A stretch of DNA of 58,298 nt from an uncultured bacterium (GCA_937864235.1 CALMJI010000024.1:1-58298), one strand, 5' to 3'. Positions 538 through 44,885 are shown, numbered from the stretch's first letter. A program made the numbers and translations. Notes: generated by a model from the letters alone, not told the origin.

Positions 538-3201
538 ATGAATGAAGCCGAGACAAGAGCTGAGCTAATTGACCCGCAACTTACATCTCAAGGTTGGGGT
601 ATTGTGGAGGGTTCTCGTGTTTTGCGAGAATATCATATTACGGATGGGAAAATTCAAGCTAATGGAGTACGAGGGGCTCGGCTCAAGGCGGATTATGTTT
701 TGGAGTATAAGGGAGTAAAGTTAGCTATTATTGAGGCTAAAAGTTCAGAATATCCTGTAGGTGAAGGGGTACAACAAGCTAAGGATTATGCTAATAAATT
801 ATCTCTCAAGATGACTTATGCTACTAATGGCCGAGAGATTTATCAGATTGATATTCTCTCAGGTGTGGAGGAATTAGTCTCTAGATATCTTAGTCCTGAT
901 GAATTGTGGAATATAATTTTTGAAGAGCAAAATCTCTGGAGAGATAAGTTCAATAGTATTCCTTTTGAAGATAAGGGTGGTACTTGGCAACCGAGATATT
1001 ATCAGGAAATTGCGGTGAATAGAGTGCTTGAGGCGATTGCAGATAATGATGATAGAATTCTTTTGACTTTGGCTACGGGGACGGGGAAGACGGCTATTGC
1101 TTTTCAGATTGCTTGGAAATTATATCAGACGAGGTGGAATCTGCAGGGGGATGGTGCTCGGCGACCTAGAATTTTATTCTTAGCGGATAGGAATATTTTG
1201 GCTAGTCAGGCTTTTAATGCTTTTTCTGCTTTCCCTGAGGATGCCCTTATACGAATTGACCCCAAGGAAATTCGCAAAAAAGGTGGTGTGCCTAAAAATG
1301 GAAGTATTTTCTTTACTATTTTCCAAACCTTTATGAGCGGGGGTTCGACAAGCTCACCCACCACAATGAATGAAGATAAAAGTGTTATATTTGATGAAAT
1401 AGGAATTAATGATACGGCGAATGGATTTATGTATATTTTACAATGCAGTGATGAAAGTTTTTATACTGGAAGTACTTATAATTTAAGTAAAAGATTACAA
1501 CAGCATAAAAATGGAGAGGGGGCTGAGTATACTAAATTGCATTTACCAGTTAAATTAGTTTACTATGAAACTTTTACAACAATTAATTTAGCATTTGAAA
1601 GAGAAAAGCAAATACAAAAATGGAGTAAAAAAAAGAAAATTGCACTTATTAAAGGTGATATTACTTCATTAAAATCTCTATCAAAAAAAATTGTCCCTGA
1701 GCCTGTCGAAGGGTATTTTGGTGATTATCCTGCGGATTATTTTGATTTTATTATTATTGATGAATGTCATCGTGGTGGAGCTAATGATGAAGGGAATTGG
1801 CGAGCGATTTTGGAATATTTTTCTCCAGCGGTGCAACTTGGATTGACGGCTACTCCAAAGCGAGAGGTGAATGCGGATACTTATCGGTATTTTGGGGAGC
1901 CTGTTTATACTTATTCTCTCAAAGAGGGGATTAATGATGGGTTTTTGACTCCATTTAGGGTGAAGAGAATCCAAACTACTCTTGATGATTATGTGTATAC
2001 TTCTGATGATGAAATTGTAGAGGGTGAAATAGAGGAAGGGAAGAGATATATAGAGGAGGATTTTAATCGAGTTATTGAAATCAAAGCCCGTGAAGAATAT
2101 CGGGTCAGTAAATTTATGGAGCTTATTGATCAGGACCAAAAAACTATTGTATTTTGTGCCAATCAAGAGCATGCGGCTGCTGTCAGAGATTTGATTAATC
2201 AACAAAAAACAAGTACTAATCCTAATTATTGTGTGAGAGTGACGGCTAATGATGGGGTTATAGGAGAGCAATATCTGAAAGATTTTCAAGATAATGAGAA
2301 AACTATCCCGACTATTTTGACTACTTCCCAAAAGCTGTCTACGGGTGTGGATGCTCGTAATATTCGGAATATTGTTTTGATGCGACCGATTAAGTCAATG
2401 ATTGAATTTAAGCAAATTATTGGTAGAGGGACTAGGCTTTTTGATGGAAAAGACTTCTTTACTATTTATGATTTTGTGGATGCTTATCAACTATTCTTGG
2501 ATCCTACTTGGGATGGAGAGCCTATAGAACCTGAAACACCACAATCTCAACCATACCAACCTATTAACACCAGTGATACTCCTAAAATAGGGGAAAATGC
2601 TCAGGAGTCTAAATTGGTAAAGCAGAAAATTAAAATTAAATTGAGAGATGGCAAAGAGAGAGAAATTCAATCTATGGTATCTACTTCATTTTGGGATGCT
2701 AATGGTAGACCAGTTTCTGCGGAAGAATTTATGCATAGCTTATTTGGAGAATTGCCTAAATTATTAGGTACAGAGGAGGAATTAAGAAGTGTTTGGAGTA
2801 GTCCTATTACGCGTAAAAAATTCCTACAAAAGCTTGATGAGGCTGGATTTAGTCGAGATAAATTAAAAACATTACAACAATTAGTGGATGCTGAGAATAG
2901 TGATCTATTTGATGTTTTGGAATATGTCTTTAATGGTGATACCAAACCAATTCCAAGAAGAATCAGGGTGGAGCAATCTAGACAAAATATCTTGGAAGAT
3001 CTAACAGAACCACAAAGACAATTTATTAACTTTGTATTGGATAAATATATACAATCTGGATTTGAAGAATTGGATCAGAGTAAATTACCTATTTTATTAC
3101 AAAATAAATTCCAAACTATAGAAGATGGTCTACAATTATTAGGATCTGAGGATACTATTACAGAGTTATTTGTTGGATTCCAAAAATATTTGTATAAATA
3201 G
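538..3201 (+). CDS. hsdR: Type I restriction enzyme R subunit (EcoEI/EcoAI-like) with in-frame GIY-YIG insertion
   Basis: Nuclease motif ADYVL..IIEAK, PRYYQ, Walker A LATGTGKT, DECH, TATP, QIIGRGTR, EcoEI-like C-terminus; about 124 extra residues between FMSG and YFGDYP. Confidence 0.9.
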   Translation: MNEAETRAELIDPQLTSQGWGIVEGSRVLREYHITDGKIQANGVRGARLKADYVLEYKGVKLAIIEAKSSEYPVGEGVQQAKDYANKLSLKMTYATNGREIYQIDILSGVEELVSRYLSPDELWNIIFEEQNLWRDKFNSIPFEDKGGTWQPRYYQEIAVNRVLEAIADNDDRILLTLATGTGKTAIAFQIAWKLYQTRWNLQGDGARRPRILFLADRNILASQAFNAFSAFPEDALIRIDPKEIRKKGGVPKNGSIFFTIFQTFMSGGSTSSPTTMNEDKSVIFDEIGINDTANGFMYILQCSDESFYTGSTYNLSKRLQQHKNGEGAEYTKLHLPVKLVYYETFTTINLAFEREKQIQKWSKKKKIALIKGDITSLKSLSKKIVPEPVEGYFGDYPADYFDFIIIDECHRGGANDEGNWRAILEYFSPAVQLGLTATPKREVNADTYRYFGEPVYTYSLKEGINDGFLTPFRVKRIQTTLDDYVYTSDDEIVEGEIEEGKRYIEEDFNRVIEIKAREEYRVSKFMELIDQDQKTIVFCANQEHAAAVRDLINQQKTSTNPNYCVRVTANDGVIGEQYLKDFQDNEKTIPTILTTSQKLSTGVDARNIRNIVLMRPIKSMIEFKQIIGRGTRLFDGKDFFTIYDFVDAYQLFLDPTWDGEPIEPETPQSQPYQPINTSDTPKIGENAQESKLVKQKIKIKLRDGKEREIQSMVSTSFWDANGRPVSAEEFMHSLFGELPKLLGTEEELRSVWSSPITRKKFLQKLDEAGFSRDKLKTLQQLVDAENSDLFDVLEYVFNGDTKPIPRRIRVEQSRQNILEDLTEPQRQFINFVLDKYIQSGFEELDQSKLPILLQNKFQTIEDGLQLLGSEDTITELFVGFQKYLYK
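1342..1713 (+). mobile_element. In-frame GIY-YIG endonuclease cassette flanked by inverted REP-like repeats
   Basis: MYILQC..FYTG..NL.KRL.QH..G...T......LVY.E......A..REKQIQ (UPF0213/YhbQ-like GIY-YIG); own ATG at 1366; ttcgacaagctca 1344-1356 vs tgagcctgtcgaa 1698-1710 (12/13 inverted match). Confidence 0.8.
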
Positions 3202-41450: not shown

Positions 41451-41527
41451 TATTGATAGTATAAATTTTCTTTTGACTTTTTTGGTAGAATAGGGTATAT
41501 TATAAGAAATTATTGAATAGTAATAAT

Positions 41528-42712
41528 ATGGCAAGAATTAATCCGGAAATAGAGACATTTGCAAAAATTAAGGTAGTGGGAGTTGGTGGAGCCGGTGGAA
41601 ATGCATTAAAGCGAATGATTGACTCAGATATTAAGGGAGTAGAATTCGTAGCTGTCAATACAGATGCTCAGGATTTACATCATTCTCAAGCAGAACACAA
41701 GGTACACTTGGGTAAAAATTTGACTCGTGGACTCGGGGCTGGTATGAATCCAGAAGTTGGTAGGAAGTCAGCTGAGGAAAGTAAAGAAGAGGTCTATCAA
41801 GCGGTAAATGGGTCTCATATGATATTCATTACTGCTGGTATGGGTGGAGGCACAGGTTCAGGAGCTTCTCCTGTAATTGCTCAGGCAGCTAAAGAAAGTG
41901 GTGCATTGACTGTGGCTGTCGTGACAAAGCCATTTATGTTCGAGGGAATTCAGCGAAAAAGAATAGCTGAGGCAGCTTTTGAGGAGCTAAAGAAAAATGT
42001 AGACACAATTATTACTATTCCAAACGATAAAATTCTAAATATCATTGATAGAAATACTCCGGTTCTTGAAGCTTTTTCTATGATTGATGATGTCCTGAGG
42101 CAAGGTGTACAGGGTATTTCTGATTTGATTACCACCCCGGGACTTGTTAATGTGGATTTTGCTGATGTAAGTGCTATTATGAAAAATGCGGGCTCAGCTC
42201 TTATGGGAATTGGAAGTGCTACAGGAGAGAATAGGGCAGTTACAGCAGCTAAAATTGCTATTAATAGTCCATTATTAGATATATCTATAAAAGGAGCAAA
42301 GGGAGTTTTGTTCAATGTTACTGGAGGTAAAGATTTATCAATGGCAGAGATTAATGATGCCGCTAATGTAATTATAGAATCTATTGATCCAGATGCACAG
42401 GTAATATTCGGAGCTGTAATAAATGACAAGATTACCGAAGGAGAAGTACAAGTCACAGTGATTGCAACTGGATTTGATGATAAAAATCCAAAACCCATTA
42501 GTAAAGAGATAGACAAAGACCCAGTACAAGAGCCAACCTTAGAAGAATTACAAAAGAGAGTTGATGAAGAAAAATCGAAAAGACAATCTGAAGAGGCAAG
42601 ACAGCAAGAAGTAGAATCCAAAAAGGATGAATTCATTAGGAATGTAGAATCAGATCCGGAAGATGCCTTTGAGTTACCAGCTTTTATAAGGAATAAATTA
42701 AATAAAAAGTAA
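41528..42712 (+). CDS. ftsZ: Cell division protein FtsZ
   Basis: GVGGAGGN, GGGTG, NVDFADV, C-terminal ELPAFIR; promoter TTGACT-N17-TATATT at 41473-41501. Confidence 0.98.
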   Translation: MARINPEIETFAKIKVVGVGGAGGNALKRMIDSDIKGVEFVAVNTDAQDLHHSQAEHKVHLGKNLTRGLGAGMNPEVGRKSAEESKEEVYQAVNGSHMIFITAGMGGGTGSGASPVIAQAAKESGALTVAVVTKPFMFEGIQRKRIAEAAFEELKKNVDTIITIPNDKILNIIDRNTPVLEAFSMIDDVLRQGVQGISDLITTPGLVNVDFADVSAIMKNAGSALMGIGSATGENRAVTAAKIAINSPLLDISIKGAKGVLFNVTGGKDLSMAEINDAANVIIESIDPDAQVIFGAVINDKITEGEVQVTVIATGFDDKNPKPISKEIDKDPVQEPTLEELQKRVDEEKSKRQSEEARQQEVESKKDEFIRNVESDPEDAFELPAFIRNKLNKK

Positions 42713-42723
42713 GTGTTCATTTT

Positions 42724-43263
42724 GTAGGGGAGGAGGTATACAATTACAAATTATAAATTTTGTCCACACCCACCCTATGTGCACCCTCGCCAGCGAGGGA
42801 TAATAATACTTGTCCTCCCTTGGGGGAGGTGTCACCATAGGTGACGGAGGAGGACTGAGATTTTTACTAAGACTTTTAGTCTCCCTTAGGAGTAAGTCCC
42901 CGAAATAGACTGAAAGTCTGGGAAAAGGGAATTAATCACCCTAATTAGGAAGGCAGCGAGGAGCTATAGCTCCGAGTGTCGGAAACCGAGGGTGTCCGAG
43001 ACGGGGTTTTAGGGGGATTAATGGAAATGTTTATTTTTCCCGTGGAGGAAGGTTGGCCAAACCTGTGAGGTTTCACAGGAGTAAATCCCATTTACGACGG
43101 ATGGGGTGGAGTATTCTGCAGCTTTAGTTTTCTGTGTCCTCCTTCGGAGGAGGTGCCCCGAAGGGGTGGAGGTGGATTGAGATAAAAACTAAATTCTATC
43201 CACCCCGCCCTACGGGCACCCCTCAAGAGGGGAATTTAAGGGACTGAAAGGTCTCGCCCCTAC
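42724..43263. repeat. Mosaic cluster of REP-like and mini-inverted-repeat elements
   Basis: Family units at about 42763-42800, 42811-42856, 43135-43178 and 43198-43236; terminal-inverted-repeat element 42931-43022; GTAG-type unit 43241-43263. Confidence 0.8.
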
Positions 43264-43338
43264 AATTCATAATTCATAATCACAATTTCCTCACATCTTG
43301 CCAAAATAGCTAAAATTATGTATAATATATACAAAATT

Positions 43339-43413
43339 GGCCACATCGTCTAGCCCGGTCTAGGACATCCCCCTCTCACGGGGAAAACAGGGGTTCGAAT
43401 CCCCTTGCGGCTA
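43339..43413 (+). tRNA. tRNA-Glu(CTC)
   Basis: GGCCACA/TGCGGCT acceptor (G1.U72, A5/C68 mismatch), TCCCC-CTCTCAC-GGGGA anticodon arm, AGGGG-TTCGAAT-CCCCT T arm; promoter TTGCCA-N17-TATAAT at 43298-43326. Confidence 0.92.
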
Positions 43414-43418
43414 CTGTT

Positions 43419-43582
43419 TTAATTTAGATGCAAAGAGAGATACAGTGTATCTCTCGTGGGGATGAGAAGGCCGGAGCTTGTGTGAGTTTGTGCGAAGCAC
43501 AAGGCGAACACCGCGAGGCGGGGTAGCGAGAATTTTCCGTCAGGAAAATTACTTGTGACCGAATCCCCTTGCGGCTACTGTT
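43419..43582. mobile_element. tRNA-3'-anchored mini element (att-like duplication)
   Basis: 23-bp direct repeat cgaatccccttgcggctactgtt at 43396-43418 and 43560-43582 around 141 bp of hairpin-rich non-coding DNA. Confidence 0.7.
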
Positions 43583-43601
43583 ACCACCCCCATTCTTAAT
43601 T

Positions 43602-44885
43602 TTATTTTGGTAATTTATCCCTTAGTTTCCTGTGATATGTTACTGCAAATCTATGAGCTTCGTCTCTGACTTGTTGTAAAATTTGTAAAGGTTTAGCACT
43701 TTTTGGTAATAAAATAGGCTTATCCCTATCTGGTATATAGATTTCTTCTAATCTTTTGGCTAGAGATATAATTGGAATAGACTTAAATTCAATATTACCT
43801 TTTTGCTGAACTTTTATTACTGTGGATAACTGACCTTTGCCTCCATCAATTAATATCAAATCTGGGATAGGCCAATCTTTTCTCTTGAATCTACGAGTCA
43901 GAGCTTGGTTTAAGTTATAAAAATCATCTCCACCTTCTGGAGGTAGTTGAATTCTGAATTTTCTATATTGGTCTTTAGCTGGTTTGGCATTTTCAAAAAC
44001 TACCATAGATACCACCGCCTTATCTCCATGAAAATGGGAGGAATCATAGCCTTCAATTCTTTTAGGTAGTTTATCTAATTTGAGTAAACTTTGTAATTCC
44101 TCTAGATATTTATGTTTGTAGCTTTTGCTAGTTTGAATTATACCCTTGTGCAGAGAGACTTTTTCTAATGCTTCAATCTGATGCTTGATTTCTAGAGCCT
44201 GTTCAAATTTTTGTAGCTTAGCATAACTTTGCATTTGAATATGTAGTTTTTTGAGTATACTTTTGGATTTTCCCTTCATAATATCTATGATGGTATTGAG
44301 ATTTTCTCTATAGCTGATTTTGTCTATATTCTTTATGCAAGGTGCATCACATTTGCCTAGTTTATAATAAATACAAGGTGTTTTTGGCATTGTTTTACAA
44401 GATCGGTAGGGGAAATGTCGTCTGAGAATTTTGAGAGTTTTCCTGAGAGATTCCCCACTTATAAATGGTCCTAAATATTCTAATTTATCGGGATTTTTGT
44501 CAATATAAGTTTTATGAGCAACAAAAATTCTAGGAAAATTTTCTTTAGTCCAGACTAGATAAGAATAGCTTTTATCATCTTTTAACAGTACATTGTATTT
44601 GGGATTATATTTTTTGATCAAATTTGATTCCAAAATCAAAGCCTCAATTTCACCATCACAGGGTTTGATTTCTATATTAACCACTTCTCTTACCATTGCT
44701 CTTTTGGCGGAGTTGAGAGAGTTATTAGCTCTAAAATAGCTACTTACTCTGTTTTTTAGGTTAACGGCCTTGCCAATATATATAATATCTCCATTAGAGT
44801 TCAAAAACATATATACCCCAGATATTGTTGGTATATCCTTGATTAGTAAAGATATATTATTTTGCTCCTCCAAAAAGTTATCCAC
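43602..44885 (-). CDS. uvrC: Excinuclease ABC subunit C (no C-terminal HhH)
   Basis: GVY...IYIGKA.NL..RV.SYF, P.YN..LKDDKSY, IEGYD.SH, LIDGGKGQL, RDEAHRFA. Confidence 0.93.
   Translation of the reverse strand: MDNFLEEQNNISLLIKDIPTISGVYMFLNSNGDIIYIGKAVNLKNRVSSYFRANNSLNSAKRAMVREVVNIEIKPCDGEIEALILESNLIKKYNPKYNVLLKDDKSYSYLVWTKENFPRIFVAHKTYIDKNPDKLEYLGPFISGESLRKTLKILRRHFPYRSCKTMPKTPCIYYKLGKCDAPCIKNIDKISYRENLNTIIDIMKGKSKSILKKLHIQMQSYAKLQKFEQALEIKHQIEALEKVSLHKGIIQTSKSYKHKYLEELQSLLKLDKLPKRIEGYDSSHFHGDKAVVSMVVFENAKPAKDQYRKFRIQLPPEGGDDFYNLNQALTRRFKRKDWPIPDLILIDGGKGQLSTVIKVQQKGNIEFKSIPIISLAKRLEEIYIPDRDKPILLPKSAKPLQILQQVRDEAHRFAVTYHRKLRDKLPK

Follow-up and report, generated by a model that had tools for sequence, protein, structure and literature searches.

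A stretch of 58,298 nucleotides from an uncultured bacterium (GCA_937864235.1, CALMJI010000024.1:1-58298), here called the window, carries a short gene-less element at positions 43396 to 43582, directly behind a tRNA-Glu(CUC) gene and on the same strand. An earlier note on this DNA had described it as an element integrated at the 3' end of the tRNA gene. The element belongs to a modular, tRNA-capped family of structured RNAs in Paceibacteria, similar in architecture to the RtT RNA of Escherichia coli. With a GC content of 32% and a set of housekeeping genes, the window comes from a Parcubacteria/Paceibacteria bacterium of the Candidate Phyla Radiation (CPR). The nearest UvrC homologues are labelled 'Candidatus Parcubacteria/Paceibacterota', and the genomes in GTDB that match are those of 'Candidatus Paceibacteria' assembled from lake metagenomes. 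Paceibacteria are a lineage of ultra-small bacteria within the CPR, whose genomes are streamlined and contain little non-coding DNA.

The element is located in an 890-bp non-coding gap with a GC content of about 47%, between ftsZ (41513-42712, + strand) and a short form of uvrC (43602-44885, - strand). The tRNA-Glu(CUC) gene at 43339-43413 (+) was identified with ARAGORN and scores 54.4 bits with the Rfam tRNA model; its CCA is not encoded. It is preceded at 43298-43326 (+) by a sigma-70-type promoter, TTGCCA-17 nt-TATAAT, matching the consensus at 11 of 12 positions, and the same promoter is found upstream of the tRNA in five relatives (L007, L011, L012, L018 and L019). No second promoter or terminator was found on the + strand between the tRNA and the unit that follows it.

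An exact 23-bp direct repeat, CGAATCCCCTTGCGGCTACTGTT, delimits the element at 43396-43418 and 43560-43582 (100% identity, 164 nt apart, interior of 141 bp). An exact 23-mer repeat within 164 bp has a chance of about 4^-23 per placement and is therefore far beyond chance. The first copy (+) comprises C56 of the T-loop, the 3' strands of the T-stem and of the acceptor stem, the discriminator and 5 nt of trailer, which agrees exactly with the repeat from the T-loop to past the discriminator that had been noted before. The second copy (+) holds the same 3' part of tRNA-Glu and the same 5 nt. Within it lie the 3' strand of a helix that we call P1 (43563-43568), the acceptor 3' strand (43570-43576) and the discriminator (43577), all on the + strand. 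After 43577 the genome reads CTG, not CCA (unit end ...GTGACCGAATCCCCTTGCGGCTA).

Between the two copies the unit, all of it on the + strand, is made up of a series of structural parts. A mimic of the acceptor 5' strand (UAG.UGCAA) lies in the trailer at 43425-43433 and pairs with 43569-43577 in the minimum free energy (MFE) fold. It is followed by hairpin 1 at 43435-43455, with 9 bp and a loop of AGU, which was found by an inverted-repeat scan (arms 10/10 complementary). The 5' strand of P1, at 43458-43463, is a mimic of the T-stem 5' strand, GGGGAU, and pairs with 43563-43568. It leads into a junction, GAGAAG, at 43464-43469, of which GAA is invariant. Helices P2 to P5 make up arm A (43470-43519), an irregular hairpin whose internal loops are GA-rich and whose apical stem (43486-43505) is variable. 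Arm B (43522-43560) is a long hairpin with an invariant CGUCAG around its loop, and its basal pair uses C56 of the second repeat copy.

Relatives were located by using UvrC homologues as anchors. The same interior is found after tRNA-Glu(CUC) in L007/L009, L011, L012 and L014, where UvrC identity is 75-91%, and in four GTDB species (L018-L021); a tRNA-Glu(CUC) gene is present in every relative carrying the unit. The scan of GTDB genomes was made with an exact-match pattern including the Glu-specific GGGG mimic, so that four species is a lower bound and is uninformative for other tRNA types; the genome-wide census is likewise a lower bound, since the scans were exact-match. Across species with UvrC down to 75% identity the interior is still about 85-100% identical. 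The GC-rich spacer upstream of the tRNA is not conserved and is missing from L011 and L012.

The number of units varies between genomes. The window has one, L018 and L019 have two in tandem, and L014 and L024 have at least two, their contigs ending inside the array; the tandem period is about 165-166 bp. Several assemblies of the window's own strain also end inside or beside the unit, and the repeated unit accounts for the assembly breaks at the locus in these genomes. In relatives, a second copy of hairpin 1 followed by a T-run closes the array in a terminator-like manner. Other alleles have no unit at all. In L016 (UvrC identity 64%) tRNA-Glu(CUC) is followed by an ordinary terminator alone, and a contig of run X2, from a strain about 91% identical, has a joint 43456 -> 43601, which places CTTTTTTTTAC and the uvrC end immediately after hairpin 1. 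This allele keeps the tRNA, the trailer, hairpin 1 and the T-run, and has neither core nor second repeat.

The exact repeat of the different units measures 19-59 bp, and in L011, L012 and L026 it spans the trailer and hairpin 1. Its trailer part varies between species and is identical in both copies of one genome, which points to concerted evolution by recombination between the copies. As a separate observation, the terminal tRNA-end copy of multi-unit arrays is sometimes degenerate (L019 4446-4470, CCCCCTGCTGCTA; L024 about 290-300, CGAATCTCC), and selection on terminal units may be relaxed.

A consensus structure was calculated with RNAalifold on 18 units. In this consensus P1 (43458-63 with 43563-68) closes a three-way junction from which arm A (43470-43519) and arm B (43522-43560) extend. 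It contains 39 base pairs; 99.4% of the 702 cells are paired, and 12 of the pairs are changed on both sides. The covariation score was 0.184 compared to 0.082 in shuffled alignments, none of 500 shuffles scoring as high, and as a control only 39-51% of cells were paired when the partner was slid by 1-3 columns. P1 itself is 98.1% paired, has changes on both sides in three of its six pairs, and varies with tRNA type. Arm A has a pair at 43471/43518 which is C-G in 7 sequences and U-A in 11, and its apical stem is found as UGUGC/GCACA, UGCGC/GCGCA, UCCCU/AGGGA and in other forms. The 16 pairs of arm B are 99.7% paired and include three compensatory pairs and two invariant G.U pairs. Hairpin 1 likewise exists in compensatory forms, GAGAGATAC/GTATCTCTC vs GAAAGATAT/ATATCTTTC vs GGGAGATAT/ATATCTCCC.

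The fold can also be assigned to a strand. Besides the two invariant G.U pairs a third is kept in 17 of the 18 units, and in all 14 cores compared the sense-strand fold is 9-19 kcal/mol better than the antisense fold. The kept G.U pairs and the sense-strand stability indicate that the fold belongs to the tRNA-sense strand.

Single sequences fold in the same way. The MFE fold of the window unit (43415-43577) has -62.2 kcal/mol and a z-score of -4.41, with 0 of 200 shuffles as stable, and both the hairpin at 43488-43502 and the long stem at 43522-43560 form in it. The closing T-stem mimic together with the core arms was predicted in 11 of 13 units, 10 of these also having the acceptor-like stem. 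This stem, stacked on the T-like stem and ending at the discriminator, is predicted in the window unit and in most other units. In the MFE folds the T-stem mimic pairs with the downstream repeat copy and leaves the tRNA intact. Much of the structure had been recognised in the single sequence: the three hairpins noted there are present and are kept through compensatory changes in relatives, and the inverted T-arm mimic GGGGATGAGAA at 43458-43468 is real, its GGGGAT pairing with ATCCCC at 43563-43568, again with compensatory changes in relatives. The covariance model that had been suggested was built, and the covariation supports the fold.

No conserved open reading frame (ORF) was found in any frame of the interior; the only recurrent start, AUGAGAA, leads to 7, 11, 21 or 32 amino acids, or is absent. 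Indels of 1 nt are confined to loops and to the end of the closing helix. The lack of a conserved ORF and the placement of the indels together indicate that the region is non-coding.

The core is not restricted to tRNA-Glu. Metagenome contigs were scanned with a pattern of the core only, which gave ten loci, four of them Glu-type. The same core of about 95 nt is also found behind Ser(UGA) in L023, Ser(GCU) in L025, Gly(UCC) in L026, L027 and L030, and Gln(CUG) in L029, where tRNA identities were assigned by ARAGORN. At every locus ...T(T/G)GTGAC closes the core, after which comes the 3' portion of the locus's own tRNA from C56, and at every locus the core is preceded by the Watson-Crick complement of the T-stem 3' strand of that tRNA. 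Mimic and target are GGGGAT/ATCCCC for Glu, GAGGAT/ATCCTC for Ser-UGA, AGGGATT/AATCCCT for Ser-GCU, GAGGGAT/ATCCCTC for Gly and CAGGG/CCCTG for Gln. The T-arm mimic thus tracks the tRNA, with GGGG, GAGG or AGGG opposite CCCC, CCTC or CCCT. In addition, a complement of 5-7 nt to the acceptor 3' strand of the same tRNA usually sits just 5' of hairpin 1, at the place of the acceptor mimic in the window (AGCTGCA in L007, GAAGTG for Ser-UGA, GAGAGA for Ser-GCU, GGGTA for Gly and GAATG for Gln).

At least four further tRNA-like 3' ends follow the core at loose ends of metagenome contigs from DNA and RNA runs. The core k-mer depth was 2- to 45-fold over the flanks in four DNA runs, which indicates many copies in these communities. 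No core stands behind the remaining tRNA genes of these contigs, which are Val in the window and Pro, Trp and Thr elsewhere, and a model search of all loci collected gave no extra or divergent copies, for example none at the tRNA-Val of the window. The Ser(GCU) unit in L025 and the Gln(CUG) unit in L029 share a near-identical hairpin 1 (AAAGCCAAT...TTGGCTTT) and a GAGAGA(A) tract; these common features suggest that one of the two gave rise to the other, which was later adapted to a new tRNA. The interior is therefore found at other tRNAs and in related genomes, each time with the 3' end of its own tRNA as the repeat. It is neither unique nor unconserved, and it does not appear as the homologue of an island end, which is the outcome that the earlier note had set against its own proposal.

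Several known RNA families were considered and rejected. In Rfam only tRNA was matched, both for the whole window at gathering thresholds and for the region at E of 1 or 10. The best other match was c-di-GMP-I-GGC, with 12.7 bits against a threshold of 59, and no family of self-cleaving ribozymes was matched. Motifs resembling the hammerhead (GAUGAG), the hairpin ribozyme (AGAA, GAACAC, AUUAC), RNase P CR-I (GAGAAAGUC) and signal recognition particle RNA have no Rfam support and are either unconserved in the Ser-GCU and Gln variants or inside ordinary helices. An H-type pseudoknot between GGCCGGA and the acceptor strand was also discarded; GGCCGGA is conserved whatever the tRNA type, and its pairing partner lies within arm A.

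The reading that we favour starts from the conservation, structure, strand, modularity, copy-number variation and unit-free alleles observed above. Although some doubt has to be allowed for, we think it probable that the interior and the second repeat copy constitute a structured non-coding passenger RNA gene riding on the tRNA-Glu(CUC) transcription unit. The earlier note had offered a co-transcribed RNA able to pair with the pre-tRNA as one possibility, and it is this alternative, an RNA pairing with tRNA sequence, that we favour; co-transcription with tRNA-Glu is what the layout of promoter and terminator suggests.

In this model the unit would be transcribed from the tRNA promoter and would fold on the tRNA-sense strand into an acceptor-like stem (trailer with the duplicated acceptor 3' strand), hairpin 1 and the P1 T-stem mimic, on which the T-loop would be replaced by the conserved three-way junction of about 95 nt. 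Because the 3' end of the unit copies the acceptor/T-arm top half of a tRNA, the RNA could be excised from the precursor by the enzymes that mature tRNA. RNase Z or another 3' enzyme is a candidate for the cut at the discriminator; RNase P might act on the acceptor-like stem, and CCA might be added. By analogy, the second repeat copy would be the 3' end of the passenger RNA, and tRNA-type processing of the unit would make the duplicated tRNA segment a working part of the RNA and not an att scar. The direct repeat may further drive unequal recombination and gene conversion, which would explain arrays of one to at least two units, repeats identical within a genome and unit-free alleles. The universal T-loop sequence at the junction suggests that recombination or template switching takes place there. 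As to its role, the RNA might serve as a decoy for, or a regulator of, some factor that recognises the top half of tRNAs, or it might be a selfish rider.

Several observations weigh against a passenger RNA gene. The core was found in metatranscriptome assemblies, and this evidence for RNA consists of presence in assembled contigs, not of mapped RNA ends. The excess depth of the core, about 38-fold in RNA runs, is equalled by an excess of up to about 45-fold in DNA runs; it therefore reflects community copy number and is uninformative on expression level. The acceptor-like stem is weak in the window, with one mismatch and one G.U pair, and the acceptor mimic is weak or absent in the Glu variants L019 and L020; the T-stem mimic separates tRNA types poorly once G.U pairs are allowed. 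The covariance model of the CPR units scores only about 11 bits on the RtT repeats of E. coli, and the Rfam RtT model has no match on 43400-43600 at E <= 10 (its gathering threshold is 45 bits). Finally, a passenger RNA alone does not explain how the module arrived at different tRNAs.

A more far-reaching version, which we regard as tentative and would not expect to be right in full, is a self-retargeting modular RNA family. Its core would be grafted into a copy of the local tRNA's T-arm and acceptor, would use the promoter and processing enzymes of that tRNA, and would spread between tRNA genes and genomes at the T-loop, either RNA-mediated or by recombination, with RtT as a distant immobilised relative. 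In that case the three-way-junction core might represent a new RNA that binds protein or is catalytic, presented on the natural scaffold of a tRNA.

The main rival is a non-autonomous mobile element, a gene-less unit of about 165 bp resembling a cis-mobilizable element (CIME) or a miniature inverted-repeat transposable element (MITE), which a recombinase or reverse transcriptase acting in trans inserts at tRNA T-loops. The fold would then be a recognition structure, in RNA or in single-stranded DNA, and the tRNA mimicry a targeting device. We consider this unlikely as the whole explanation, but several observations speak for it: the core occurs at five or more tRNA genes, always joined at C56 and with tRNA-specific flanks, units stand in tandem, L016 and the strain of about 91% identity are unit-free, core copies are many in lake metagenomes, and the Gln and Ser-GCU units have hairpin 1 and the GAGAGA tract in common. 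A metatranscriptome contig of 160 nt in run X3 is moreover circularly permuted with respect to the window (43531-67, 72 nt, 43479-529); the contigs are compatible with a circular molecule and with a tandem array as its source, and an array explains it equally well.

A Pfam scan of 20 window ORFs, which did not extend to about 20 others of at least 100 amino acids, detected no integrase, transposase or reverse transcriptase, and none is present in the precomputed Pfam annotation that covers approximately 21 kb around the element. The core pattern had no match in the viral contigs of IMG/VR, and three matches to a looser pattern had neither a model match nor a tRNA and are attributed to chance; blastn against 50,697 phage genomes also gave no match. 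No excision joint was found in the contigs of the four DNA runs, where assembly drops rare variants. The repeats themselves are 19-59 bp with a species-specific trailer and thus represent neither a fixed core site nor a target-site duplication, and next to the right-hand repeat no core-type half-site was found, the TTGTGAC there not imitating one. The variability of the repeats together with their identity within a genome fits duplication and gene conversion better than an exchange between attP and attB. The earlier note had appealed to tyrosine integrases, with the repeats as attL and attR. No evidence for such an integration was obtained: no integrase was found in the annotated part of the window and no copies in phages, and repeats of up to 59 bp, species-specific trailers and tandem arrays speak against it. 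The interpretation of that note as a whole is partly supported. A mobile element and an RNA gene are compatible readings, and a mobile RNA gene would satisfy both.

Less probable still, and in our view distinctly improbable, is a cis-acting 3' trailer element that controls maturation, stability or termination of the tRNA precursor, for example a mimic competing with the T-stem 5' strand of the tRNA itself. Since the repeats are identical, the mimic is equally complementary to the genuine upstream tRNA copy, and the unit lies inside the same transcription unit without an internal promoter; in relatives hairpin 1 with its T-run is the terminator of the array, and Rfam assigns RtT to the type Cis-reg. 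A core of about 95 nt which is almost identical across five tRNAs nevertheless argues for an autonomous function, as does its tandem amplification. In the MFE folds the partner of the mimic is the downstream copy and the tRNA stays intact, and most tRNAs on the same contigs have no unit.

A functionless remnant, either the scar that a prophage or genomic island left on its deletion or a tandem duplicate of the tRNA gene in decay, is highly improbable although direct repeats of a tRNA 3' end are the classic signature of integrase insertion and the segment 5' of the second copy is about 46% identical to the tRNA 5' part (by eye, not significant): the interior has stayed about 85-100% conserved while UvrC diverged to 75%, 12 pairs are compensatory, the same core stands at other tRNAs without a match in the phage collection, and uniform decay cannot leave 23 nt at 100% identity beside unrelated sequence, on which ground a decayed second tRNA copy was discarded. 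Conservation and covariation refute the prophage scar, and the earlier opinion that the interior is too structured for such a scar was justified, the interior being both structured and conserved.

Some further features of the neighbourhood were recorded. All relatives carrying the unit have an A5.C68 mismatch in the acceptor stem of tRNA-Glu(CUC) (43343/43408 in the window) together with G1.U72; the tRNA-Glu(CUC) of the unit-free L016 has a perfect U5-A68 pair. The UvrC encoded next to the element has 427 amino acids, is short like that of close relatives (410-430 amino acids), and lacks the C-terminal helix-hairpin-helix domains of the UvrC of about 600 amino acids found in most bacteria. At 538-3201 (+) the window encodes an 887-amino-acid helicase of the ResIII/EcoEI-R type with a GIY-YIG nuclease domain embedded between the helicase motifs.

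Clusters of GC-rich nested hairpin repeats are found at 42731-43260 and at 1-430 of the window, despite the GC content of 32% of the genome. The clusters of the window and one downstream of the unit in L020 share the modules CCCTCAAGAGGGGAATTT, CTATCCACCCC and GTCCTCC...GGAGGAC. In L020 a cluster of about 150 bp is inserted between the second repeat copy and the terminal hairpin 1, and in L011 and L012 the same spacer has none. The DNA-run depth at 43192-43233 is about 5-10-fold over the flanks, and at 42810-42855 there is a sub-threshold match to the Rfam family whalefall-1 (20.5 bits, threshold 37). These clusters look like multi-copy mobile palindromic repeats.

In E. coli, knowledge of the repeats that carry a tRNA 3' end behind tyrT goes back to the late 1970s, and that of the RtT RNA to 1991. 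An RtT architecture with a different, strongly covarying core in CPR genomes, attached to at least five tRNA species, means that the design is general and under selection and is not an enterobacterial oddity. The comparative data set, with its structure, invariant nucleotides and tRNA-specific adaptor helices, makes the function testable. It also provides a concrete candidate for RNA genes that piggyback on tRNAs and are possibly mobile. For annotation it is a warning against taking every duplicated tRNA 3' end for an att site.

Three groups of known systems can be compared with the unit. The first is that of integrative elements and CIMEs. Tyrosine integrases duplicate tRNA 3' ends as attL and attR, and the T-loop is reportedly, after Williams in 2002, a known sublocation for integrases. 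Such elements and the CPR unit have in common a direct repeat of the tRNA 3' end from the T-loop, a gene-less interior, tandem copies and variable presence. The CPR unit differs in having an interior of 141 bp and not of kilobases, with no counterpart found in phages or plasmids, a repeat of variable length with a species-dependent trailer, and an interior that is a covarying, strand-specific fold.

The second group consists of viral tRNA-like structures (TLS) and the MALAT1 mascRNA, which are tRNA-like signals for processing or 3' ends, and of 3'ETS-leuZ, a small RNA from a tRNA trailer. By analogy, the CPR unit would resemble these in carrying an acceptor/T-arm mimic on an RNA that is not a tRNA, in an expected recruitment of tRNA enzymes, and in its origin from a tRNA precursor. 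They differ from it as free-standing mimics which are not literal copies of a neighbouring tRNA, and they have no conserved three-way junction in place of the T-loop.

The closest comparison is with RtT. In the sequence of E. coli K-12 three units of 178 bp follow tyrV, each ending in AATCCTTCCCCCACCACCA, the last 19 nt of tRNA-Tyr, which begin inside the T-loop. Every repeat contains GGGGAAGGAT-GAGAAG, in which a sequence complementary to the T-stem and to the first pairs of the acceptor precedes the GAGAAG known from the CPR unit; the closing helix is GGGGAAGGAU/AUCCUUCCCC. The same closing helix is used by the Rfam consensus of RtT (RF00391), which finds four copies at the K-12 locus with 133-137 bits. 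In a passage of PMC3318445, citing Bosl and Kersten (1991), rttR is given as one repeat unit of the tyrT operon. The rttR annotation ends at a tRNA-like CCA. The fourth copy found with Rfam lies in the tyrT-tyrV spacer (L032 1464-1595).

In both cases the unit comes straight after a tRNA gene, shares its strand and belongs to its transcription unit, and in both each tandem unit ends with a 3' segment of the tRNA starting in the T-loop (A58 in E. coli, C56 in the CPR). In both, this segment pairs with an upstream complement of T-stem and acceptor and closes a branched GC-rich structure, and the motif AUGAGAA(G), GAUGAGAA, follows the closing helix. Over its full length and in register, the CPR covariance model can be aligned with each of the three distal RtT repeats, with E of about 0.02-0.04 in 1.6 kb. 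Considering the weak scores between the two models, the architecture is common to both while homology of the CPR core and RtT is possible only, as far as can be judged from sequence. Full-text literature searches brought up no account of an element of this kind from CPR bacteria.

Core sequence and arms of RtT are unlike those of the CPR unit. Acceptor and T mimic form one continuous helix in E. coli, whereas hairpin 1 separates them in the CPR, and CCA is encoded in E. coli but not in the CPR unit. E. coli has a small tpr ORF starting at the AUG of AUGAGAAG, whereas the CPR unit is without a conserved ORF. This annotated 'protamine-like' ORF starts at the very AUG that belongs to the conserved RNA motif GGAUGAGAAG, which raises doubt over tpr as a gene. 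To our knowledge RtT has been associated with tRNA-Tyr only; in the CPR one core has been fitted to at least five tRNA species.

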